From the IMG/VR virus record IMGVR_UViG_3300032332_001372, positions 1 through 62,269 of that record: DNA of 62,269 bases; one strand, 5' to 3'. The DNA is from a virus (lineage: Duplodnaviria > Caudoviricetes). The translations under genes were made by a program, and so were the position numbers. A model generated the notes under the pieces. That model was not told where the DNA came from. It searched no databases and was given only the letters and a program-made list of their open reading frames with translations. Position 1 is the first letter of the stretch; each line of letters opens with the position of its first letter. Shown here piece after piece: positions 7,704-22,632 of this stretch.

Positions 7704-7740
7704 TCACCCGCTAATCACCGTTCTGATTAGCGGGTGATTT
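7704..7740 (+). terminator. Intrinsic terminator
   Basis: Perfect 14 bp stem tcacccgctaatca/tgattagcgggtga followed by TTT. Confidence 0.75.
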
Positions 7741-10471: not shown

Positions 10472-11902
10472 ATGGCAGAGAAACTTGATTTAACGGAGTT
10501 TGGTTCGACGGGCTTGCGCCGTTCGGGTGGAACTGTCTATGAAGAATTTCTTACTAATCTTCGCGGTATCCGCGGCGCTAAGGTCTACCGCGAGATGGCA
10601 GATAACGACCCAGTAATTGGGTCAATGCTTTATGCAATTGAAAAAGTTATTACTCGCCTTGAATGGCGTATTGACCCATTTGAAGAAGATTTACAAGACG
10701 ATTCAGCATCCAATAAAGCCGATGAGGAAGTTGGAAAATTTATTGAAGAATGTCTGCACGATATGTCAGACTCATGGGACCAAACACTTTCAAGTATTTT
10801 AACTATGCTTATTTTTGGATATTCATATCACGAAATTGTTTATAAATATCGCGGTGGGCAAGATGCTAAAGATGGAACTCGCCGCTCAAAATATTCAGAT
10901 GGAAAAATTGGATGGCGCAAATTCCCTATTCGCGCTCAGGAAACTTTGTTCCGCTGGGATATTGATGAAACAGGCGGAATTAACGGAATGGTTCAAGTGG
11001 ACCCTTCAGGCGGCGGAGTTCATTACATCCCAATTGAAAAGGCTATGTTATTCCGCACTAGCGTTAATAAAAATAACCCAGAAGGTCGCTCAATCCTGCG
11101 CAACGCTTACCGACCATGGTATTTTAAAAAGCGCATTGAAGAAATTGAAGCAATTGGTATTGAGCGCGACCTTGCAGGTTTGCCTGTAGCGTTTGTTCCG
11201 CCAGAGTATTTATCAGCGTCGGCTTCAGATGCTCAGAAGGCTGTTTTGGCTTCGGTTCAGCAAATTGTTACTTCTATTAAGCGTAATGAGCAAGAGGGTG
11301 TTGTATTCCCAACTCTCTATGATGAGCATGGAAATAAGCAGTTTGATTTAAACCTTTTATCTTCAGGTGGTTCACGCCAGTTTGATACGGATAAAATTAT
11401 TCAGCGTTACGACCAAAGAATGTCTATGTCTATCCTTTCAGATTTTATTCTTCTCGGTTCAGACAAAGTTGGTTCTTACGCACTTGGTTCAACAAAGATG
11501 GATTTGTGGTCAATGGCTGTAGATTCAATCGCCAAAAACATTGCTGAAGTAATCAATTCTTATGCAATCCCTCGTTTGATGAAGTTAAACGGTATGGATG
11601 TAAGCCGTTGCCCACAACTTAATTACGGCGAGATTAACCATGTTGATTTAACTGAAATTGGCAACTTTGTTACACAGTTGGCTCAGGCTGGAGTTCTTGT
11701 TCCTGACGCAAACCTTGAACACTACTTACGCGATTTGGCTGGATTGCCCGAAGCGGACCATAGCGGTGCAAGTTTTGGTGCGCCTCCTGCACCTGGTCAA
11801 GAACCAGGAGTTCCCGCTGATGCAAATACTGCGGGACAAACAGTTGCCGACCAAGTAAAACCAGTTGAGGGAACGGAACCGCTCCAAGGCGATACGGACT
11901 AG
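10472..11902 (+). CDS. Portal protein (DUF935/Mu gp29-like)
   Basis: 476 aa, first gene of head module; NPEGRSILRNAY, GSYALG motifs. Confidence 0.85.
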   Translation: MAEKLDLTEFGSTGLRRSGGTVYEEFLTNLRGIRGAKVYREMADNDPVIGSMLYAIEKVITRLEWRIDPFEEDLQDDSASNKADEEVGKFIEECLHDMSDSWDQTLSSILTMLIFGYSYHEIVYKYRGGQDAKDGTRRSKYSDGKIGWRKFPIRAQETLFRWDIDETGGINGMVQVDPSGGGVHYIPIEKAMLFRTSVNKNNPEGRSILRNAYRPWYFKKRIEEIEAIGIERDLAGLPVAFVPPEYLSASASDAQKAVLASVQQIVTSIKRNEQEGVVFPTLYDEHGNKQFDLNLLSSGGSRQFDTDKIIQRYDQRMSMSILSDFILLGSDKVGSYALGSTKMDLWSMAVDSIAKNIAEVINSYAIPRLMKLNGMDVSRCPQLNYGEINHVDLTEIGNFVTQLAQAGVLVPDANLEHYLRDLAGLPEADHSGASFGAPPAPGQEPGVPADANTAGQTVADQVKPVEGTEPLQGDTD

Positions 11903-11905
11903 ACC

Positions 11906-12919
11906 ATGGCACTTCGGTTTAGTAAAGCCAACTCAGGAAAAAAAGTTCCACTAACTGCCGAAGAGCAGGTAATGGCTCGCACCCTAATAGATGCTATCCG
12001 TCGAACAACAAACTCAATTTCTGTTCAAGAATTATCGCGCATTATTTCTCAACTAGACGCAGATACTTTAGCCCGCTTGCTTCAACAAATTTCTATAAGT
12101 GGGGATGCCGCCGCAATCAATAGAGCCTTAATGCAATCAGTAAGTTTTGGTGGAACGGATGCAATTCAACAGATTGCTCGCATTGCTCCAATTCTTGCTT
12201 TACCCGCATTTATGCCAACTAAAGTCCAGGTTCTTAATCCTGAATCTTTAGCCAATATGGACTTTACAAAAGTTCCTCGTTGGGCAAGTAATGCACCAGA
12301 TAAGATTAAATTTAATTTAAGTTTTAATAAAACAAACCCAAACTCTTTGGCTTTTGCCCAACGCCGCGCTGGTGAATTAGTGAGAAGTATTGATGAGGCA
12401 ACTCGTTTATCTATCCGAAACATTATTACCGATTCTTTTGCTAATCAAGTAAGCCCACAAATTACCGCTATGCGCATTAAGAATATTATTGGACTTCACC
12501 CTAGATGGGCTGAGGCAGTAGTTGAATTTGAAAAGCGTGAAACTGCTCGTTTAATTAAGGCTGGAGTTTCAGAATCAAAGGCTGTTAAAACCGCTCAAGG
12601 TTCTGCCTCTGCATACGCTGATAGATTAAAACAAGCCCGTGCTACCACCATCGCTCGAACAGAAATTCAGATAGCACAAAATGAGGGACGCTACGAAGGT
12701 TGGAAGCAAGCATCTGATGCTGGGTATGTAGACCCCGCTTCAACTAAAACTTGGATAATTGCTCAAGACGAACGCACCTGCGATATATGTGTTCCCCTTG
12801 ATGGTGAAACAGTTCCATGGAACGGAATTTTTTCAATTGGAGATGAAGTTCCTGGAAGAGTGCATCCTAATTGCCGCTGCACCATGCAAATTAACCCTCC
12901 CGAAATTGCATCATTATGA
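11906..12919 (+). CDS. MuF / SPP1 gp7-like head morphogenesis protein
   Basis: RATTIARTE...KTW...DERTCDIC...HPNCRC; directly after portal. Confidence 0.9.
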   Translation: MALRFSKANSGKKVPLTAEEQVMARTLIDAIRRTTNSISVQELSRIISQLDADTLARLLQQISISGDAAAINRALMQSVSFGGTDAIQQIARIAPILALPAFMPTKVQVLNPESLANMDFTKVPRWASNAPDKIKFNLSFNKTNPNSLAFAQRRAGELVRSIDEATRLSIRNIITDSFANQVSPQITAMRIKNIIGLHPRWAEAVVEFEKRETARLIKAGVSESKAVKTAQGSASAYADRLKQARATTIARTEIQIAQNEGRYEGWKQASDAGYVDPASTKTWIIAQDERTCDICVPLDGETVPWNGIFSIGDEVPGRVHPNCRCTMQINPPEIASL

Positions 12920-13668
12920 CCCAGATAATTTACTTTCAACCTGGATTAAAACCAGTTCTTAAACACCAAGTCCACGACCAAAAGACTCATGGCAACTGGG
13001 CTTTAAGTGAGAACTATCCAGATTTATTAACACTAGGCACATTTGAAGAAGAATTTGAATATGACCCAGCGCTAATGGTTTATAGCGAGCGCTATGGAGT
13101 AGACAAAGACGGCAAAATCGTTGGAGTTGAAACCTTTGAGCATGATGCTATTGATAGTTATTCTCAAGAGGGGTATAAAAATATAAACGCGTTTCTTCGC
13201 AACCCCAGAGGTTTTGAAGGTTCTTATGAAATAAAATTTCTTCAAGAAAAGGTTGATGGGTTAGATTCTTTGATTGATAAGGCTCCAGATATGTTCGGAG
13301 ATAAAACTTTATTTCGAGTCGTAGATAATTTTGTTTTAGCGCAGTTAGCCCCAGGCGACACTCTCAGAGATAAAGGTTATTTATCAACTACACGAATAGA
13401 TTTGACCAAAGATACGGATACTCGGGATGCGCTTGGCGAAATATATGACACACCTGATACCGTTGCTGTCATTCTTCCAAGCCCAACCAAAAGCGGTAAA
13501 GGAATTGCCGTAGACCTTTATCGAACCTCCGTCAATGATACGAGTTCCGTATCAGATAGAGAAAAGGAAGTTCTATTACCTCGCCAAACGGATTTGCTGT
13601 TTTTGGGATATAAAAGAGGTATAGGCTCTGAGGATAAGGTCGCAGTCTTTCAAAGGGTGGATAAATGA
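12916..13668 (+). CDS. VIP2/Alt-like ADP-ribosyltransferase with N-terminal HDQ tag
   Basis: YKNINAFLR, TLFR, GYLSTT, EKEVLLPR motifs. Confidence 0.85.
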   Translation: MTQIIYFQPGLKPVLKHQVHDQKTHGNWALSENYPDLLTLGTFEEEFEYDPALMVYSERYGVDKDGKIVGVETFEHDAIDSYSQEGYKNINAFLRNPRGFEGSYEIKFLQEKVDGLDSLIDKAPDMFGDKTLFRVVDNFVLAQLAPGDTLRDKGYLSTTRIDLTKDTDTRDALGEIYDTPDTVAVILPSPTKSGKGIAVDLYRTSVNDTSSVSDREKEVLLPRQTDLLFLGYKRGIGSEDKVAVFQRVDK

Positions 13669-16295
13669 GCAGATTTAAAACCGTTCTTGAGGATGTTGAG
13701 ATTATCCAAGCCGTTGAAAAACACGGCACTCACGACCAAAAAACCCATGGTAACTGGGCTACGGGTGGAACTCTTTATACAAGCATTATTGACCGCTTGG
13801 CTGCTAAAGATGTAACTGGATTTAGCCTGGATATTTCTAGCCGCAAACAGCCTACGAGCGGCTATATGGCTTCAAATGATGGCGCTGAAAAACCTATCGC
13901 TTACGACGAATTCTTTTCAAGCAGGGATAATGGGCGAAAAATTCTTTTGGACTACATAGAAAAGAACGCAGACGCCCTAAGCGAGCGCGGAGCATATTTT
14001 GGTATATGGGTTGTAAAAGACCAGGGAACCGTGTATCTTGATGTTTCTCGGCGCTACGATTCCAGAGGTGAAGGAGTCCGCGCTGGATTTAGCAATAAAC
14101 AACAATCAATTTACGACATCGACAATGATGCGTATATCTATATGAAGGACGAGGTAGATGACCGAACCAACAAAGCCGTTACTGGTGGAAGTTCCAATTC
14201 CAGTCAATCAGATGACGGACGAAGAAAAGAAAGCCTTCGCGGAGGAAATTCTCAACGCGATAGAAAAGAACCGCTAACAACTTTCCCTCATGTTTGCTTA
14301 GGCAGATATACGGCAGTTCTAAAACACCTTCAGGGTTTGCATGACCAGGCAACTCATGGCGCCTGGGCTAGTGGTCGTTATCCAGAAGATTCAGTCAAAG
14401 CCGCCCGTGATGGCGCCAAAGAATATCTTTTTCAAAAAGGTTTAAAAGGCGATGACACAATTGATTACACAAAAATTGTAGCCAACCGCGAACGGGCATC
14501 TAAAATAGCAGACCTTTACGAAAATCTTCCTAAAATGGACAGAGATGCAGTAGATGAGTATGAGGCGCTTGCATCCGAAGTAGAAGAACAATTTGATTAC
14601 ATGACAAAGACTTTAGGGGTCAAGGTTGAGTTCGTTGCTTCAGACCCTTATAAGACTTCAAAAGAAATGTTTGAAGATGTAAGCAAAGGCTCTCTAAAGG
14701 TTTTATCAACAGCCTCTACTGGCGCTCACCCATTATTTAGCGATGAACAAAATGACAAGTTTAGAGCAGTCCATGATTACTTTGGACACGCTGCTACAGG
14801 TCGAGGATTTGGGCAAGACGGAGAAGAGTCAGCCTGGGTCCACCATTCCCAAATGTTTACAGAAAAAGCGCGGGGTGCTTTAACAACCGAAACCCGCGGA
14901 CAGAATTCCTTTTTTAATAATAGGGGAAAACAATTTGCAGACCAAAAAGTTGCTTTGTTACCACCTGAGTTCTGGCAAGTTCCGAAAGTGTTTGTCAAAA
15001 TGCAAATAATTCGTTTTGCTCCAGGATTAAAACCAATTTTAAAACACCTTCCTGGACAGCACGACCAGTCCACTCACGGAGCATGGGCAACTGGCGGCTA
15101 CAGCGAAGAGCGTCAAGCGGGCATTGCTGCCATGGAAAGCATGGGACCCTCAAGAGAGGACTTGGATAATCTTTATGATGCACTTCAGTCAAGTTCAAGT
15201 GGTCCATCTTTAGATGAGATGAAAGCAATTGTTGAAAATGACAGAGGGCTTTACGAGCAAGCAACTGATGGAATTGATGAAAGAGTTGCCGAGCGACTTA
15301 GCAATTTACAAGAAGAATTTCCTAAACATGAATACACAGAACAAGAAAAATCGACAATTTATGACGATGTTCAAACAGAAATGATTGATGAGTTCATTAA
15401 TTCTGAATCAGACACAATTCATCAGATGTTTGAAGAGTCAAACGGCGGAAGCGACATGGATAAAATAGCAGAAATGCAAGGCTTTATGAATGAGGTTTAC
15501 GCCTATGAACATACTGGAACAAATGCCGCAGGAGAAGAAAACACATATTATTCCGAAGTAACAAACATGGAACCTAGTCCATTTATTCCTGGCGGAATTA
15601 AAATTTACGGCTCTGTTTATACAACAAACGGAGATATTGCTGGAGAATTTGAGCGCACCATGTATAAAGAAAATGGTGAGTGGATGGTTGAGCATGACAT
15701 ATTCCAAATGTTTGATGACCACAAGGGTTCAGGATTTGGAAAAGGTTTTATTGAACAACAAGAAAACTGGTATGTATCCCGAGGATTTGATTCAATTGTT
15801 GTAGGAACCGCATGGGACGGCGCCCGCCATTGGGCAAGAGCGGGCTATGACTGGAATCCAAAAGAAATGACACAAAATGTTACCCAACTAATGCAAAGAG
15901 TTAATCACGAACCAGGGTTTGAGGTTGGCACCCAAAATAGAACTGAATTTGAATCTTTGATGGGTCGCATGGTTGAAAATTACAAACCAGGAACAAATGA
16001 AAACGCTATGGCTGGAACAGGTCTTACATCAGCAAGAGAGTTAAAAGTTAAACCCATGACAAATAATGATTTTCCAATCCCCGCTGATTTTGCAAACCTT
16101 GGAATTGACCGCAAAACTAAAACAGGTAATTTTGTGGACTGGGCTGGAAAAGGGCTGACCGCTGGACTGCACATGAAATACAAGAAGGGCTTGACCGCCG
16201 AAGGTTTGACTATTGCAGAGGGACCAATTGACCGCGATGGCGATGGATTGGTTTATGACGGAACAGCCCGAGAAAAACCAGCCCCAAACAAATAA
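13665..16295 (+). CDS. Three-module polyprotein: unknown (possibly SAM-lyase-like) domain, HDxxGH metal-binding domain, GNAT acetyltransferase-like domain
   Basis: Three HDQ tags split the ORF; FRAVHDYFGH...GEE; HKGSGFG...GARHWARAGY. Confidence 0.75.
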   Translation: MSRFKTVLEDVEIIQAVEKHGTHDQKTHGNWATGGTLYTSIIDRLAAKDVTGFSLDISSRKQPTSGYMASNDGAEKPIAYDEFFSSRDNGRKILLDYIEKNADALSERGAYFGIWVVKDQGTVYLDVSRRYDSRGEGVRAGFSNKQQSIYDIDNDAYIYMKDEVDDRTNKAVTGGSSNSSQSDDGRRKESLRGGNSQRDRKEPLTTFPHVCLGRYTAVLKHLQGLHDQATHGAWASGRYPEDSVKAARDGAKEYLFQKGLKGDDTIDYTKIVANRERASKIADLYENLPKMDRDAVDEYEALASEVEEQFDYMTKTLGVKVEFVASDPYKTSKEMFEDVSKGSLKVLSTASTGAHPLFSDEQNDKFRAVHDYFGHAATGRGFGQDGEESAWVHHSQMFTEKARGALTTETRGQNSFFNNRGKQFADQKVALLPPEFWQVPKVFVKMQIIRFAPGLKPILKHLPGQHDQSTHGAWATGGYSEERQAGIAAMESMGPSREDLDNLYDALQSSSSGPSLDEMKAIVENDRGLYEQATDGIDERVAERLSNLQEEFPKHEYTEQEKSTIYDDVQTEMIDEFINSESDTIHQMFEESNGGSDMDKIAEMQGFMNEVYAYEHTGTNAAGEENTYYSEVTNMEPSPFIPGGIKIYGSVYTTNGDIAGEFERTMYKENGEWMVEHDIFQMFDDHKGSGFGKGFIEQQENWYVSRGFDSIVVGTAWDGARHWARAGYDWNPKEMTQNVTQLMQRVNHEPGFEVGTQNRTEFESLMGRMVENYKPGTNENAMAGTGLTSARELKVKPMTNNDFPIPADFANLGIDRKTKTGNFVDWAGKGLTAGLHMKYKKGLTAEGLTIAEGPIDRDGDGLVYDGTAREKPAPNK
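14158..14277 (+). CDS. 39 aa ORF nested in the +1 frame of the polyprotein linker (candidate immunity peptide)
   Basis: GAGGT RBS-like site just upstream; MTEPTKPLLVEVPIPVNQMTDEEKKAFAEEILNAIEKNR. Confidence 0.55.
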   Translation: MTEPTKPLLVEVPIPVNQMTDEEKKAFAEEILNAIEKNR

Positions 16296-16327: not shown

Positions 16328-16489
16328 ATGGATAGAGCAGAACGGTTAAAAAGAATTCAAGCCGCATATGCTGAATTTTCAACGGACTTAAAGTTTGTTG
16401 ATGAAACAGGCGGCTCCGATAAAGATGAATCCGAATTTATGACGCATTTAGCGGAGATGAAATTAACCTCGGTAGAGGAAACTAAATAA
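16328..16489 (+). CDS. 53 aa acidic protein (candidate immunity protein of the GNAT module)
   Basis: Read manually; AAGGAGG RBS, TATAAT and operator motif upstream. Confidence 0.75.
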   Translation: MDRAERLKRIQAAYAEFSTDLKFVDETGGSDKDESEFMTHLAEMKLTSVEETK

Positions 16490-16520: not shown

Positions 16521-18809
16521 ATGGCTGACAATACTTTCACTCCTCCAGAGGGAGTTCGTTCCGCTGCAAAGCGGGCGCTAAAGTGGATTGCAGACGGCAA
16601 GGCTGGTAGCGGCTTTACCTCCGTAGGACACACCAGAGCCACACAATTAGCCAATGGCGAAAACATCTCGCTTGAAACTTTGAACAGAATGAAGTCTTTC
16701 TTTTCGCGCCATGAGGTTGATAAAAAGGCTACTGGATTTAATGAGGGAGAACAAGGTTTTCCTTCTCATGGAAGAGTTGCCTGGGATGCCTGGGGCGGTA
16801 ATGCTGGATTTGCCTGGGCTAAATCAAAAGTTGGGGAAACAGAAAAATCCATTAATAAAAGTGCAGATATTGCTCCTCGCTTGGTTGAACTCAGCGTCGA
16901 TAAATTGCGTTCGCTCCATGAGCGTTTACATAAATCCAGCCCAACCGCATCAACCCTAGAAGTCCATCATTTAACTACAACTGAAATGGCTCGCCGCGGT
17001 ATGGAGTTGCCAGTAAACGACGAATGGCAAAATGTCCGTATTCAGATTGATTATTTTAAAGATGTAGACCTCAAATCTTTTGCTTCAACTTTACCCACAG
17101 GACAAATTGAAGATGTAATTAAGGCAACTGGAACTAGCGTTGCTGATGTCAGAGTTGTTTTAACCTCTATTGGCTATGCCATGGAGATTGCCCCAAATGA
17201 TGTAGTTGCAAAAATGATTAAACATCAAAAAGATAAATGGGTTGTTTATGATTCAACAGGAACTCATGCTTTTGGAACATACGATACAAAAGAAGAAGCA
17301 ATGGACCGCATTGCTGAAATGGAATATTTTAAAAAACACCTTCAAGGTCAGCATGACCAAAAAACCCACGCTCCTATTTGGACAAGAAATCTTGTAGATG
17401 CAATAGAAGCGGGAGAACACCCAGAAGTAGAGCCAGAAAATATTTCTGCAATGCTCAAAGGAATGAGTAAATTAACAACCCATCCAGACATTACGGAAGT
17501 AAGCGTAAAAGGACATTTGCTTTTTGGCGGCGAAGGAATGGGTATTGCCCGCAAAGATATGCCCCAGATTCCAAGCAGGGAAAGAGATAGATTTCTTTCA
17601 GAAATTGAAAAAACAGATGGCGTTACTTTTGATAAAGAAAAGGTGGACCCTACAACTTTGAAACCAATTCAAAAAGAAATTTCTGGTTCTCGGGCTGGCG
17701 CTATTTATAATAAATTTGCGGAAGATGGAGGAATTCCAAAAAATGAACGAATTCTTATTTCCTCCGACGGCTTTGTTGTAGACGGTCACCATACATGGGC
17801 AGCATCAGTTGGATTTGCATTTGACAAACCAGGAACAGAAATCCCAGTTTATCGTTTGTCAATTACTGGTAAGGAAGCCTTAAAGATTTCAAATGATTGG
17901 GCAAAAGCAAACGGATTTGAAGGTCAAGCGATTGACGCCAAGGTTAAAAAATCTTTATATCTTTTAGAACCTATGGAAAAGTTTAATCCTCACCATGATG
18001 AAATTGGAAGATTTACAACTGCAACTGGTGGCGGTTCTAGTGGTGCAACCGTAACAGGAAATACGCAAGATGGTTCTCAAGTTGTAAACGGAATTAAAGT
18101 TCCACCCCTTGCTAAAGAACCTGAAATTAAAGCACACAATCCAGTTGCGCTTGCCAAAGCAAAAGAAATTAATGAAACTGCAAAAAGAGTTGAACCAGCA
18201 ATTACTGGATTAATTACTGCAATTGCTCAACGAAGTGGCGGAGAATTTGTTCAGTTAGACCAGAGGATTAAATCAACTGAAGCGTTGGCTGGAAAAATTG
18301 AACGCGAGGCTGTATCCGAACACGGTGGGGACCTTGATAAAGCAGCAGCGGGTATTTCTGATGCCGTCCGTTACACACTTAAAGTTCCGCAATCTGAATA
18401 TACGGCTTCTTTTGATTCAACAATTAAAGTTTTACAAGATGCAGGTTTTACAACAATCCGACCAAAAAACTTTTGGCAATCAGGCGACCCTTATGATGGC
18501 GCTAATATCAAAGGAATCAAAAACGGAATTCAAATTGAAGTCCAATTACACACCCCTGAATCTTTTGCCATGAAAAAGCGTATACACGGGTATTACGAGG
18601 CTTACAGAAAATCCCCAAACGATACGACCCGCAAGAGGATGTGGACTCGCATGGTCAATATTGCTAAAACATTAGAAAAACCAGCCAACTATTCAACTTT
18701 GCTGGGCATCGGAACCCTTGTTTTACAACAATTCCAAACAGCCCAAGAAGTGGGTTTGGTAAAATCAACTAGGGTTGATATACTAAACCTTAATAAGAGA
18801 GAGGGGTAA
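16521..18809 (+). CDS. Polyprotein: head-associated small domains, ParB/Srx-like domain, RelA/SpoT-like (small alarmone synthetase-type) nucleotidyltransferase
   Basis: LKPIQKEI...DGFVVDGHHTW; RIKSTEAL..KI, DAVRYT, KNFW..GDPYDG, IEVQLHT. Confidence 0.8.
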   Translation: MADNTFTPPEGVRSAAKRALKWIADGKAGSGFTSVGHTRATQLANGENISLETLNRMKSFFSRHEVDKKATGFNEGEQGFPSHGRVAWDAWGGNAGFAWAKSKVGETEKSINKSADIAPRLVELSVDKLRSLHERLHKSSPTASTLEVHHLTTTEMARRGMELPVNDEWQNVRIQIDYFKDVDLKSFASTLPTGQIEDVIKATGTSVADVRVVLTSIGYAMEIAPNDVVAKMIKHQKDKWVVYDSTGTHAFGTYDTKEEAMDRIAEMEYFKKHLQGQHDQKTHAPIWTRNLVDAIEAGEHPEVEPENISAMLKGMSKLTTHPDITEVSVKGHLLFGGEGMGIARKDMPQIPSRERDRFLSEIEKTDGVTFDKEKVDPTTLKPIQKEISGSRAGAIYNKFAEDGGIPKNERILISSDGFVVDGHHTWAASVGFAFDKPGTEIPVYRLSITGKEALKISNDWAKANGFEGQAIDAKVKKSLYLLEPMEKFNPHHDEIGRFTTATGGGSSGATVTGNTQDGSQVVNGIKVPPLAKEPEIKAHNPVALAKAKEINETAKRVEPAITGLITAIAQRSGGEFVQLDQRIKSTEALAGKIEREAVSEHGGDLDKAAAGISDAVRYTLKVPQSEYTASFDSTIKVLQDAGFTTIRPKNFWQSGDPYDGANIKGIKNGIQIEVQLHTPESFAMKKRIHGYYEAYRKSPNDTTRKRMWTRMVNIAKTLEKPANYSTLLGIGTLVLQQFQTAQEVGLVKSTRVDILNLNKREG

Positions 18810-18811
18810 AA

Positions 18812-19546
18812 ATGAGATATTTCATACTTATGAGTATGGGCAAACCCATTAATTTACGCCGCTGGACACCTGAAACTGAAGAGCGATGGCAGGACGGAAA
18901 ATGGGTTCCAAGCGATGTAATCGGAGCATACTTAGCATTAGGCGAAGGCGATTACGATGAAATTACTACGGAATTAGCAATTGCTACATTTCCTGATGCT
19001 TTTGGCGATTTAACAAAGTCAATCGGAGCCTACGAAGTTTCCAAGGCTGAGGATATGAAGCGCTACACATTAGGCGCCATGTATATCCCAGACCGTTTAG
19101 ATGCTCATAGTGAGTGGACATCTGCTGATGAATTACAGCAAGCCGTGTGGACATATGTTCGCTCAGGTGACCGAAATATCCGCCTTCAACATAATCGAGA
19201 AATCGTTGCAGGTGAATGGGTCGAAGTTATGGCTTTCCCTTATGAATTAACAGTTCCAGTTCAACAAGCCGATGGGTCAAAACAATCACATACATATCCA
19301 GCAAATACAGTTTTTCTTGGAGTTGTTTGGGAACCGTGGGCATGGGAACTTGTCCAAAGCGGAAAAATTCTTGGTTACTCAATTGGAGGTAAGGCTGAAC
19401 GCCTTTATGTCGATATGGAAGAAGTTATCAAGGAGGACCCAACTTCTGATGGTCCCTTAGCCTCAGATGTTCATGTTGATACAATAATCAGTCAGCAGAA
19501 AAAAAAGAAACTTCCAAAGATTTTAGTTGAGGATAACAATGTCTAA
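18812..19546 (+). CDS. XkdF-like prohead serine protease with an extra ~65 aa N-terminal domain
   Basis: YIPDRLDAHSEW, LQH, W.LVQSGKILGYSIGG. Confidence 0.8.
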   Translation: MRYFILMSMGKPINLRRWTPETEERWQDGKWVPSDVIGAYLALGEGDYDEITTELAIATFPDAFGDLTKSIGAYEVSKAEDMKRYTLGAMYIPDRLDAHSEWTSADELQQAVWTYVRSGDRNIRLQHNREIVAGEWVEVMAFPYELTVPVQQADGSKQSHTYPANTVFLGVVWEPWAWELVQSGKILGYSIGGKAERLYVDMEEVIKEDPTSDGPLASDVHVDTIISQQKKKKLPKILVEDNNV

Positions 19547-20105
19547 AAAAGAAGGTATTTCAGTTGGCGATATGGTCGGCTGGAATTCTTCAGGCGGTCA
19601 TGCCATGGGCAGGGTCGAACACATTATGCGGGACGGTGTTTTAGGAATCCCTGATTCAAAGTTTAAAATAAATGCTTCGAAAGAGGACCCTGCTGTATTA
19701 ATCAGAATTTATCGTAATGGTGAAGAAACTGAAACTTTAGTCGGTCACAAAATGTCCACATTGTCTGGAACTGTCAAAAAATATAATCGCCACCATGATG
19801 ATATTGGTCGTTTCTCTTCTGGTGTGGAAGGAACTGGCATTGGCATAAACGGCGATGACAATATGGATGCCATGGATATGATGGACATTAATCGCCCGCC
19901 TCGCTCAAAGCGTCAATTGACTGCATCTGAAAGAAAACTTCTTAATAGAATTACATCTGGCGCAACAAATTATGTTTTGCGTCCTGGTGATAACCGCGGT
20001 GTTTATAATCTTCCTTTTTCAACTGGACCAAAATTAAACGGTGGTATTACTGGATATGTTCCAAATTCAGGAGTAACTGGACAGCCAGGAGCGGGTGGTA
20101 TGTGA
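19539..20105 (+). CDS. Tudor/SH3-like (HVA1/DUF2945-like) domain, HHDxIGRF tag, low-complexity tail
   Basis: ISVGDMVGWNSSGG...VGHKMSTL; RBS GAGGA before ATG 19539. Confidence 0.65.
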   Translation: MSKKEGISVGDMVGWNSSGGHAMGRVEHIMRDGVLGIPDSKFKINASKEDPAVLIRIYRNGEETETLVGHKMSTLSGTVKKYNRHHDDIGRFSSGVEGTGIGINGDDNMDAMDMMDINRPPRSKRQLTASERKLLNRITSGATNYVLRPGDNRGVYNLPFSTGPKLNGGITGYVPNSGVTGQPGAGGM

Positions 20106-20368
20106 ATACCATCATTGAAACTACTCAAGAAATAATGCAGGGTTTAGGACTTCAAGCAACTCGCGTTTCAACCCCTCCTGGATATGCTGGACTATCAATT
20201 GAATTACCAAATGATTCCCAGGCATTTTTTATCTGGACCAAGATGGATGAGAACGACTACCATTTTAGAATTGCTAGATTTTGGACTAAAGACAATCCTT
20301 TCGCAATGTTTATATGCCCTGATTTAACTAGCGCCGTTGCAAAAACAAAGGTTTTAATAAACCTGTAA
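20102..20368 (+). CDS. Hypothetical protein
   Basis: 88 aa, GTGA overlap. Confidence 0.7.
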   Translation: MNTIIETTQEIMQGLGLQATRVSTPPGYAGLSIELPNDSQAFFIWTKMDENDYHFRIARFWTKDNPFAMFICPDLTSAVAKTKVLINL

Positions 20369-20468: not shown

Positions 20469-21242
20469 ATGGCTGGTCGCGCTCGCAAAATGGTGAATCT
20501 TGCCATTGAAGAAACAAGTGGGGTAGACCATCCCGCACACCTACACGAAGGTTGGCTGGTTATGAAATCTGCCGACGAATCTGAAGTTCAGAGTGTCTTA
20601 GACGAAACGCTCACCGAGGAGGACTCCAACATGGAGGATGTAACTACCGCGGCTGTTGAAGAGCAGGTCGAAAAGGCTGACATGACTATCGAAGAAGCAA
20701 TGAAGAAAATTGCAGAACTTGAAGCCAAGTTAGCAGAATCCAAATCTGAAGATGCGGCTGAACCAGCAATGGCTAAGTCGGTTTCAGAGGAATTCTTGAA
20801 GTCCGCTCCTGAGCCAGTCGTCAAAATGATTGAAGATTTGAAGAAAGCAGCAAGCGATGCAATCGCAGAACTCCAGAAGGAGCGCGATGCAACAGCAGAT
20901 GCAGAAGCAGTTGAAAAGGCAAAGGGATGGGCAAACCTTTCTCTTGATGCCGAAAAAGTTGGTCCAGCGCTTCGTCGTTTGGCAACAATTGATGCAGAAC
21001 TAGCAAAGTCAGTAGAAGAAGTTCTAACTGCAACTAACGCAAAGGCTGAATCAGCAGATATTTTTGCGGAAATCGGCAAATCCGCAGATTTCAAGAGCGG
21101 TGATGCTTACAGTCGTATGACTGCCATGGCAAAGTCTGCTGTTGAAGAGGGTGTTGCAAAGTCATTCGAGAACGCTCTCGCTGACATTGCTGTAAGCAAC
21201 CCTGACCTTTACAGCCAATACCTATCCGAGAAAGGTGCCTAA
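20469..21242 (+). CDS. Capsid scaffolding protein
   Basis: ETSGVDHPA N-terminus, acidic coiled-coil, many xK-S/A sites; upstream of capsid genes. Confidence 0.75.
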   Translation: MAGRARKMVNLAIEETSGVDHPAHLHEGWLVMKSADESEVQSVLDETLTEEDSNMEDVTTAAVEEQVEKADMTIEEAMKKIAELEAKLAESKSEDAAEPAMAKSVSEEFLKSAPEPVVKMIEDLKKAASDAIAELQKERDATADAEAVEKAKGWANLSLDAEKVGPALRRLATIDAELAKSVEEVLTATNAKAESADIFAEIGKSADFKSGDAYSRMTAMAKSAVEEGVAKSFENALADIAVSNPDLYSQYLSEKGA

Positions 21243-21247
21243 TTACC

Positions 21248-21640
21248 ATGGCATATGAATTCAGTAATTACTCGGTAAAGGTCACCCTCGTAGCAGGTGC
21301 AGACCTTTCCGCAAAGCAATACAACTTCGTTAAGTTGAACTCTTCAGGTCAAGCAATCGCGGTTGCTGCCGATACCGATGTCCCAATCGGAGTTCTACAG
21401 AACGCACCAACTTCAGGTCAAGAAGCCGAAGTTCTTATCGTTGGCGGAACAAAGATTGTTGCTGGTGCAGCAATCACACTTCCATCTGCAATTGGAACAG
21501 GCTCAACAGGTAAGGCAGTTGCCCTTGCTACTACAGATACAACAAAGTATGTAGTTGGAACTCTTATTTCCGCTTCTGCTGCTGATGCAAATGTTGTGAC
21601 CGCTGTTATTAACTGCGCAAACGCAACTAGAGCGAACTAA
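21248..21640 (+). CDS. Capsid decoration/cement protein (DUF2190-like)
   Basis: AGADLS...PIGVLQN; between scaffold and major capsid gene. Confidence 0.75.
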   Translation: MAYEFSNYSVKVTLVAGADLSAKQYNFVKLNSSGQAIAVAADTDVPIGVLQNAPTSGQEAEVLIVGGTKIVAGAAITLPSAIGTGSTGKAVALATTDTTKYVVGTLISASAADANVVTAVINCANATRAN

Positions 21641-21654
21641 GGAGCAAATAAAAA

Positions 21655-22632
21655 ATGCCACAACCAAATATCAATAGCGTCCACATTGACGCAATTCTTA
21701 CAAACATTTCTGTTGCTTACCTTCAGAATCAAGACAACTTCATCGCTGACAAGGTATTCCCAGTAATCCCTGTCGATAAGCGTTCAAATAAGTATTTCAC
21801 TTATGACAAGAACGACTGGTTCCGTGACGAGGCTCAACGCCGCGCTCCTGGAACAGAGTCCGCTGGTGGAGGATATTCTCTTTCAACTGCAACATACTCA
21901 GCAGATGTTTTTGCTTTCCACAAAGATGTCGATGACCAAACAATGGCTAACGCAGATACACCTTTGAACCCTCTTCGTGAGGCAACAGAGTTCGTAACTC
22001 GCCGCCTAATGCTTCGTCGTGAACTTCAATTCGTATCTGATTTCTTCACAACAAGCGTATGGGGAACAGACATCACAGGTGTTTCAGGAACTCCATCAAC
22101 AAACCAAGTAAAGCAATGGTCAGACTACACAGCATCAGACCCAATCAATGACATCGAAAACGGTAAGTCAGGCATCCTTTCTGTAACAGGTATGGAAGCA
22201 AACACACTCGTTCTCGGATACGAAGTATTCAAGGCTCTAAAGAACCATCCAGACCTTGTGGACCGTATCAAATACACATCTTCACAGACAATCACAACAG
22301 ATATGCTTGCGGCAATGTTTGACATTCCACGCGTTATCGTTGCCAAGGCTGTAAAGGCAACAAACAACGAAGGCGCAACAGGTGCATATGGTTTTGCATT
22401 TGGTAAGTCAGCACTTCTTTGCCATGTTGCTGCAAACCCAGGTCTGCTAACACCTTCAGCGGGTTACACATTCGCATGGACAGGCGTTTCAGGCGGACTT
22501 GGCGCAACCATTGGAACTTCACAGTTCCGTATGGAATCAATCAAGTCAGACCGCATTGAAGCGGAAATGGCATTTGATAACAAGGTAGTAGCGAGTGACC
22601 TCGGTTACTTCTGGACCTCAATCGTCGCTTAA
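21655..22632 (+). CDS. Major capsid protein
   Basis: 325 aa; LTNISVAY..FIADKVFP; followed by terminator. Confidence 0.9.
   Translation: MPQPNINSVHIDAILTNISVAYLQNQDNFIADKVFPVIPVDKRSNKYFTYDKNDWFRDEAQRRAPGTESAGGGYSLSTATYSADVFAFHKDVDDQTMANADTPLNPLREATEFVTRRLMLRRELQFVSDFFTTSVWGTDITGVSGTPSTNQVKQWSDYTASDPINDIENGKSGILSVTGMEANTLVLGYEVFKALKNHPDLVDRIKYTSSQTITTDMLAAMFDIPRVIVAKAVKATNNEGATGAYGFAFGKSALLCHVAANPGLLTPSAGYTFAWTGVSGGLGATIGTSQFRMESIKSDRIEAEMAFDNKVVASDLGYFWTSIVA

Follow-up and report, generated by a model that had tools for sequence, protein, structure and literature searches.

The complete phage locus

The DNA analyzed here (the window) is the complete 62,269 nt genome of a freshwater phage of the class Caudoviricetes (Duplodnaviria), IMG/VR record IMGVR_UViG_3300032332_001372, which has direct terminal repeats and a CheckV completeness of 100%. 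This report concerns two adjacent genes in its head gene cluster. The first (16521-18809) encodes a 762 residue multidomain head-module protein that ends in a putative toxin domain related to RelA/SpoT homologues (RSH); the second (18812-19546), which starts 2 bases past the TAA stop of the first, encodes a 244 residue protein in which a small N-terminal module precedes an XkdF-type prohead protease. All genes, domains and expression signals of the window located below are on the plus strand. An earlier note, made from the sequence alone, had proposed that the first gene encodes an alarmone synthetase-like effector and that its antitoxin is fused to the protease; we followed up that proposal computationally.

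A putative pyrophosphokinase toxin domain

The C-terminus of the 762 residue protein (residues 530-762, 18108-18806) has the fold of an RSH synthetase (SYNTH) of the pyrophosphokinase type seen in Apk2, Tas1 and SaEAS. The alarmone-synthetase motifs with which this open reading frame (ORF) was said to end could all be located: RIKS at residues 582-585 (18264-18275), DAVRY at 614-618 (18360-18374), Y658 within DPYDG, and EVQLHT at 673-678. In 18 diverged relatives (37-55% identical) R582, K584, D614, R617, Y618, Y658, G660, E673, Q675, H677 and T678 are invariant. A phmmer search of the domain against all PDB sequences matched a single chain, 8vx3 (E 3.8e-15), and an AlphaFold model built with the 18 relatives as input (predicted local distance difference test, pLDDT, 87.3) retrieved the same chain first in Foldseek (E 1.1e-12, template modeling scores 0.72/0.81), followed by Tas1 (6ox6_A, E 1.4e-5) and then by Rel, RelP and SAS1/2 at 1e-3 to 6e-3. 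Chain 8vx3 is the crystallized D121A mutant of SaEAS, an exported synthetase described as making (p)ppGpp and (p)ppApp and as toxic in the cytoplasm, in which the D121A mutation is reported to be inactivating (PMC12691689); the catalytic D121 aligns with D614.

Among GenBank phages, tblastn with the toxin domain matched 131 records, assigned to Ralstonia (84), Streptococcus (35), Pasteurella (3), 'Bacteriophage sp.' (3), Mannheimia (2), Haemophilus (2) and Aggregatibacter (2). The MuF 'head morphogenesis' proteins of Streptococcus, Mannheimia and Pasteurella align at 30-36% identity (E 1e-15 to 1e-21) over 68-85% of the domain, and the Apk2 domains of such MuF prophage proteins are reported to make (p)ppApp (PMC12226406). 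By these comparisons the toxin domain is closest to SaEAS, to the type VI secretion toxin Tas1 and to the Apk2 domains that MuF proteins of prophages carry.

The remainder of the 762 residue protein is a mosaic. The protein matches PHROG 2859 (function unknown), residues 235-267 weakly match DUF2188, and residues 283-297 (17367-17411) contain a KHLxGxHDQxxH motif. A ParB-like middle domain, suspected from a DGHH motif, was dropped, Pfam having returned nothing for residues 284-529. Most relatives (L007-L080) carry the first two domains (16521-17370) in reverse order, the middle region (approximately residues 272-540) is present in some relatives and absent from others, and domain shuffling is frequent. 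The toxin domain itself is preceded by a linker (17973-18107) with an NPxHDxxGRF motif and then a Gly/Ser/Thr-rich stretch; the form N-P/R-H-H-D-x-I-G-R-F with its Gly/Ser/Thr-rich stretch (18033-18065) is found again in the 192 residue Hva1_TUDOR ORF (19527-20105). The His-rich sequence K-H-L-x-G-x-H-D-Q-x-x-H-G occurs three times in the 876 residue ORF farther upstream (13665-16295) and once in the 762 residue ORF. Among relatives it marks domain boundaries, standing right after the module in ADP-ribosyltransferase fusions and right before the RSH-like domain in locus L137 (2403-5978), and it could act as a linker or as a point where a protease cuts.

The N-terminal module of the protease

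The protease gene is likewise composite. Pfam assigns PF14550 (Peptidase_S78_2) to residues 75-197 (E 3e-11, 43.8 bits against a cut-off of 24), within an XkdF-type prohead protease part (19010-19546) that ends in a lysine-rich tail, and residues 1-66 (18812-19009) form the candidate IapK-like immunity module. Modeled alone, the module is a small alpha/beta domain (pLDDT 91.3). The best 120 homologues of the 244 residue protein were inspected; most align from residue 1, and in a subset the alignment starts only at residue 66/67, behind another N-terminus of ~75 residues. Both N-terminus types meet the protease at a common junction, K-S-I-G-x-Y-E-V-S-K-A-E, so that the ~65 opening residues, earlier judged unrelated to the protease, are indeed a separate unit.

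When a profile built from 18 modules was run against 1.84 billion representative proteins, 197 clusters were recovered at E<=1e-3. Among the best 150 of these, 104 are no longer than 100 aa, and many short members end just past an FP-x-AF motif and are thus free-standing, some others being fragments at contig ends. The family is nearly invisible to existing resources: Pfam assigned no family to 101 of its members (two single-member matches, IL22 and CBM26, were taken as chance), no PHROG covers the module or its stand-alone homologues, neither the module nor stand-alone homologue P0190 had a tblastn match among GenBank phages, and Foldseek of the module model against the PDB gave nothing at E<=0.001.

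Other N-termini also occur on these proteases. The protease of locus L137 (9070-10152) and homologue P0120 begin with the N-terminal domain of the 762 residue protein of the window (A-K-R-A-L-x-W-I-x-D-G-x-A-G), and in the profiles of PHROG 14859 and PHROG 1530 ~230 residues precede the protease part. Extra domains seem to dock quite generally at the N-terminus of the XkdF protease. One homologue, P0148 (603 aa), combines an RSH-like domain with the module and an XkdF protease in a single ORF, which may be a sequencing error or a real variant.

Co-variation of toxin and module

We took loci with both module types from viral contigs, giving 91 distinct protease sequences including that of the window, 3 of which lie on contigs without upstream DNA. 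The window-type module has an RSH-like domain directly upstream in 76/76 distinct proteases that have upstream DNA, and the other type follows a Zeta-toxin domain in 12/12, counts that are weaker evidence than they look, since an adjacent toxin domain and module can be carried by one recombination. The segment was therefore not found as an ordinary part of XkdF proteases lacking a RelA/SpoT neighbor, the observation by which the earlier proposal could have been refuted. Across 112 loci the spacing between toxin gene and module gene is -22 to +7 nt.

In the three loci tested, the Zeta assignment has Pfam Zeta_toxin matches at E 3e-24 to 3e-26. In the Zeta-type loci similarity to the 762 residue protein stops at about residue 543 and similarity to the protease resumes at 66/67, which indicates that the exchanged block runs over the gene boundary and comprises exactly the toxin domain plus the module. 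On a quick maximum-likelihood tree of the protease core (108 rows, excluding six with a short N-terminus and those without the anchor motif) the second module type requires 7 changes, at least 3 of them forced by well-supported branches.

The association also holds away from the protease. In four loci (L137-L140) the fusion partner of the module is an ADP-ribosyltransferase or a different effector, such as a peptidase-like protein, and the module directly follows an RSH-like domain in all four; the L137 protease carries a different N-terminal domain. With these loci in view, the suggestion that tying the antitoxin to an essential head gene is the purpose of the arrangement is unsupported.

The second module (~75 aa, with ANKLF and NEWVGDEYDD motifs) sits on the protease in loci L081-L093, wherever the upstream protein ends in Zeta_toxin. 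It had no match in Pfam, PHROGs or PDB sequences (profile A11 returned chance-level rows and no epsilon antitoxin). From its position it is a candidate new Zeta antitoxin.

Relation to IapK and Tis1

In five annotated phages a MuF-Apk2 gene is followed by a gene for a 68-72 aa hypothetical protein and then by one for a metal-dependent phosphohydrolase. The published gene order is apk2-iapK-aph1 (PMC12226406), and we took the five small proteins as IapK on that order and not on a published sequence. Aligned with hhalign, a 101-member module profile matched these five proteins with 86.1% probability (E 5e-6) over 63 columns. The iapK-position proteins belong to PHROG 3514, which does not hold the module. 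Structural comparison with VIA-align placed Tis1, which confers immunity to Tas1, at rank 6 among 48,161 chains (Z 3.2, root-mean-square deviation 3.8, 55 residues, 20% identity), a weak similarity in a search in which all rows had Z<4; in PDB profile searches with module alignments A3 and A5 there were chance-level rows only, and Tis1 was absent. That the module is remotely homologous to the small proteins encoded where iapK follows Apk2 is probable but unproven.

Free-standing homologues could be seen in context twice. On a freshwater Micrococcales metagenome-assembled genome (L153, 4001-4210) a distant homologue follows a 5'-nucleotidase (NT5C) gene, and on a short metagenome contig (L145, 1915-2136) another follows a histone-deacetylase-like gene. 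Stand-alone homologues, for which the earlier note had proposed a search downstream of RelA/SpoT domains, thus exist, many of them of 100 aa or less, and in both contexts no such domain is nearby. These two may be immunity genes that have become orphans, or may encode partners of other enzymes. Scans of viral contigs with A9, P0142 and P0162 gave no stand-alone homologue context, A8 returned only loci already known, and a scan of genome contigs with the toxin alignment gave none.

Predicted toxin-module complex

Co-folding of the toxin domain and the module, as proposed in the earlier note, was done with the 18-row alignment of each and with three controls. The predicted complex has an ipSAE of 0.87 (0.89, 0.87 and 0.86 in separate runs), against 0.37 for the best control; the mark was reached by 58/80 solved complexes and 2/110 mismatched pairs, counts that hold only roughly here because our own alignments were used. 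The runs have at least 62% of contacts in common, and both partners have a pLDDT of at least 86. On the toxin side the predicted interface comprises S613/D614, D656-Y658, G660, K664, K685, H689, Y692 and Y695, so the module is predicted to sit over the catalytic cleft, covering invariant motif residues. As the similar complex of Tas1 with Tis1 (6ox6) has been solved, the score may partly reflect likeness to it and be less than independent evidence.

A probable promoter inside the toxin gene

A sigma-70-like promoter lies within the 3' end of the toxin gene (18756-18784, TTGGTA-17-TATACT), with its -35 element TTGGTA at 18756-18761, a TG at 18776-18777 and its -10 element TATACT at 18779-18784. 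The ribosome-binding site noted ahead of the protease ORF, GAGAGAGGGG, is present at 18797-18806, five bases ahead of the ATG. Between 16200 and 20600 there are 4 promoter-like matches against 10.1 expected from shuffles, so that the window by itself lends the promoter no support, and what support there is comes from relatives.

For that comparison we used 63 distinct upstream sequences from the 112 loci, which are related to one another, so the counts are not independent. The Leu codon at -35 is TTG in 63/63, with TTG making up 254/1021 of the Leu codons in these domains, and the Val codon is GTT in 63/63. The TG ahead of the -10 is kept in 62/63, and the -10 retains TAnnnT in 63/63, though the encoded tetrapeptide has 10 variants. 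The promoter score reaches at least 9 of 12 in 45/63, and the -10 ends 24-30 nt upstream of the start codon among relatives. From this conservation, the view that the protease/immunity gene has its own promoter inside the toxin gene end is supported.

The first reading of this region had called the promoter early-type and marked an operator at 18767-18776. That operator was rejected as unsupported: its sequence, AACTAGGGTT, occurs as a single copy in the whole window, and an 18-mer including the -10 has no second window copy at up to 3 mismatches. Early timing of the promoter is likewise unsupported.

Surrounding head genes

The protease gene lies between the portal and MuF genes and the major capsid gene. 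Upstream of the pair are the portal gene (10472-11902, 476 aa), a MuF-domain head morphogenesis gene (11906-12919, 337 aa; PF04233, E 4.2e-12, match at 12545-12886), an ADP-ribosyltransferase gene (12916-13668, 250 aa; PF03496, E 2e-10), the 876 residue ORF, to which Pfam assigns no family, and a 53 residue ORF (16328-16489) without assignment. Downstream are the 192 residue ORF (PF11160, Hva1_TUDOR, E 2.6e-7), an 88 residue ORF (20102-20368) without assignment, a 257 residue ORF (20469-21242, PHROG 13547), a 130 residue ORF (21248-21640, PHROG 673, 'head scaffolding') and the major capsid gene (21655-22632), encoding the 325 aa major head protein. The ADP-ribosyltransferase exoenzyme gene overlaps the end of the MuF gene and resembles half of a split MuF-toxin pair; with the RSH-like domain, it gives this head module at least two toxin-like domains. 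The region had no megablast match among GenBank phages. Far upstream, at 7704-7737, a perfect palindrome with a 14 bp stem and T-runs on either side resembles a two-way terminator edging the upstream gene block.

Interpretation and alternatives

The best explanation of the locus is a toxin on a head protein accompanied by an immunity-like module on the capsid-maturation protease, an explanation to which we assign a probability of roughly two-thirds (about 0.68). What the analysis shows of it is the synthetase fold, the limit between module and protease, the co-variation of toxin and module, the probable remote homology and a promoter sequence conserved among relatives. The last ~230 residues of the 762 residue protein would be a toxic RelA/SpoT-type pyrophosphokinase of the Apk2/Tas1/SaEAS group, whose product, by analogy with those enzymes, is most likely (p)ppApp, perhaps (p)ppGpp too. 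Protease residues 1-66 would be an IapK-like immunity domain lying across the catalytic cleft and silencing the toxin in the cell that is building virions; we infer both the binding and the inhibition, and likewise the packaging of the toxin in capsids, its ejection into a next host and any part that the protease may have in removing the module. Toxin domain and module would constitute one exchangeable cassette spanning a gene boundary, the whole of which gives way in relatives to a Zeta-toxin domain with the other module. The immunity-protease gene would be translationally coupled to the toxin gene, and its own host-type promoter within the toxin gene end means that immunity could also be made without toxin. 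The antitoxin role proposed for the segment in the earlier note is favored by co-variation, by remote similarity to iapK-position proteins and by the predicted complex, that is, on sequence and modeling grounds.

Several observations weigh against this explanation, in addition to the cautions attached above to the naming of IapK, to the co-variation counts and to the complex score. The match to the five iapK-position proteins fell to 51% (E 1.5e-4, 21 columns) with the 18-sequence profile, and to 37% (E 3.5e-4, 58 columns) when the 101-member profile was set against a single iapK-position sequence. The two free-standing homologues seen in context, which belong to one distant subfamily, have no RSH domain near them on the DNA available (3 kb for L145 and 8.2 kb for L153). 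Pfam RelA_SpoT (PF04607) does not match the window's toxin domain at E<=1, and in homologue P0148 it reaches only E 0.0072, 17 bits against a cut-off of 27. One relative (L011, 7001-7240) has an in-frame stop within the module, by sequencing error or as a real variant, and a promoter-like element was found in just 1/11 Zeta-type loci. The complete genome has no HD_4 or HD domain that would mark an Aph1-type hydrolase, and no tyrosine integrase was found in it (other integrase and repressor types were not searched for). Finally, every step of the finding is computational.

Three other explanations deserve comparison with an immunity function. The module might be a packaging tether instead of an inhibitor, bringing the toxin-bearing protein into the procapsid with the protease or another head effector, the toxin being kept harmless otherwise, for example by low activity or late expression. 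Specific binding of this kind would account equally well for the co-variation and the predicted complex, and the module is indeed N-terminal on several head-module proteins (the protease, an ADP-ribosyltransferase, a peptidase-like protein). The predicted interface is nevertheless made of invariant catalytic residues including D614 and not of a peripheral surface, the remote homology of the module points to proteins encoded where an immunity protein known to inhibit would stand, and most of its homologues are stand-alone proteins of ~70 aa with nothing to tether, so we regard a tether as unlikely. A different possibility is that the N-terminal segments serve the XkdF protease as interchangeable pro-domains or regulators, have no relation to the upstream gene and co-vary with it through block exchange. 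Neighboring sequences are inherited together, and other XkdF N-terminal extensions do exist (PHROG 14859, PHROG 1530, P0120 and the L137 protease). This is hard to reconcile with block limits that, in three or more separate events, coincide with the toxin domain start and the junction of module and protease, with a module that follows an RSH-like domain in 4/4 loci even when it is not on the protease, and with a predicted complex that passes its controls; we consider it improbable.

The C-terminal domain could, alternatively, be a mild alarmone synthetase used in host takeover, or an inactive relic, needing no immunity and leaving the module otherwise employed. The missing Pfam RelA_SpoT match and the lack of a hydrolase-type second immunity would fit, as would the seeming absence of an integrase, unlike the temperate MuF-toxin phages described in PMC5576092. 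A mild or decayed enzyme sits poorly with catalytic motif residues that are all invariant across relatives only 37-55% identical, and its closest characterized relatives are all reported to be toxic in the cytoplasm (SaEAS, PMC12691689; Apk2, PMC12226406). We give this idea, too, little credence.

The preferred explanation, an immunity module that silences a head-borne toxin, can be carried further, into a version that we offer as doubtful speculation. Here the module acts as a safety catch coupled to maturation: it would silence the toxin and enter the procapsid together with toxin and protease, and the protease would then destroy its own module, so that arming would take place only within sealed virions, from which the toxin would be ejected into the next host. 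The internal promoter of the incoming genome would make immunity at once without toxin, ending the toxin pulse, and the stand-alone homologues in a freshwater Micrococcales genome would be orphan immunity genes kept by hosts against injected toxins.

Comparison with known systems and significance

The closest parallel is with the Apk2 MuF toxins of Streptococcus pneumoniae, Mannheimia and Pasteurella prophages, which have a homologous C-terminal RSH-type domain (the 30-36% identity given above), a toxin gene in the head module after the portal, and a partner of ~70 aa encoded directly after the toxin domain. Unlike in those systems, the toxin here is not fused to MuF, which is a separate gene, with no PF04233 in the 762 residue protein, and the partner is fused to the prohead protease and not free-standing as IapK is. 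There is also no Aph1-type hydrolase or integrase found here, and the other domains of the toxin-bearing protein are shuffled among relatives. Tas1 (Apk1) and Tis1 (PDB 6ox6) likewise combine this toxin fold with a small immunity protein (76 residues in Tis1). Tis1 is described as inhibiting by occlusion of the acceptor site (PMC12226406), and the interface predicted here also covers the catalytic cleft; in contrast to a phage-head toxin, Tas1 is delivered by type VI secretion, and the similarity of the module to Tis1 is weak (Z 3.2). SaEAS of Streptomyces albidoflavus (PDB 8vx3) is the best match to the toxin domain in both sequence and structure, with its catalytic Asp aligned.

Relatives that carry Zeta_toxin in the place of the RSH-like domain, with a different ~75 aa module at the same position on the protease, recall Zeta-epsilon systems; unlike in these, that module has no sequence similarity to the epsilon antitoxin or to any solved chain. 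As a large multidomain protein, the 762 residue protein also resembles the polyvalent proteins of invasive elements, for which Iyer et al. 2017 (PMC5512222) describe RelA/SpoT, ADP-ribosyltransferase and peptidase domains and suggest entry into the host along with the DNA. In its available text that account has no partner fused to a prohead protease, and the name 'XkdF' is absent. In the literature searched, there was no description of an immunity-protease fusion for this toxin-immunity family.

We place the system with Apk2/IapK, as a variant of that kind, and do not regard it as a new kind in itself; its new elements are the protease fusion, the cross-gene cassette swap with a Zeta toxin, and the conserved internal promoter. 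Until now, descriptions of Apk2-type head toxins have placed them on the MuF proteins of temperate phages, accompanied by immunity genes that stand free. The present locus differs in its non-MuF multidomain carrier, in a partner welded to the capsid protease or to another effector, and in repeated swaps with Zeta cassettes. If the proposed binding and inhibition are true, the arrangement would offer a route for packaging an active toxin without poisoning the phage's own factory, and the Zeta-type loci would supply a second, uncharacterized candidate antitoxin, for Zeta toxins. A large family of ~70 aa proteins, spread over 197 representative clusters without a Pfam or PHROG entry, could then be filed as candidate immunity proteins.

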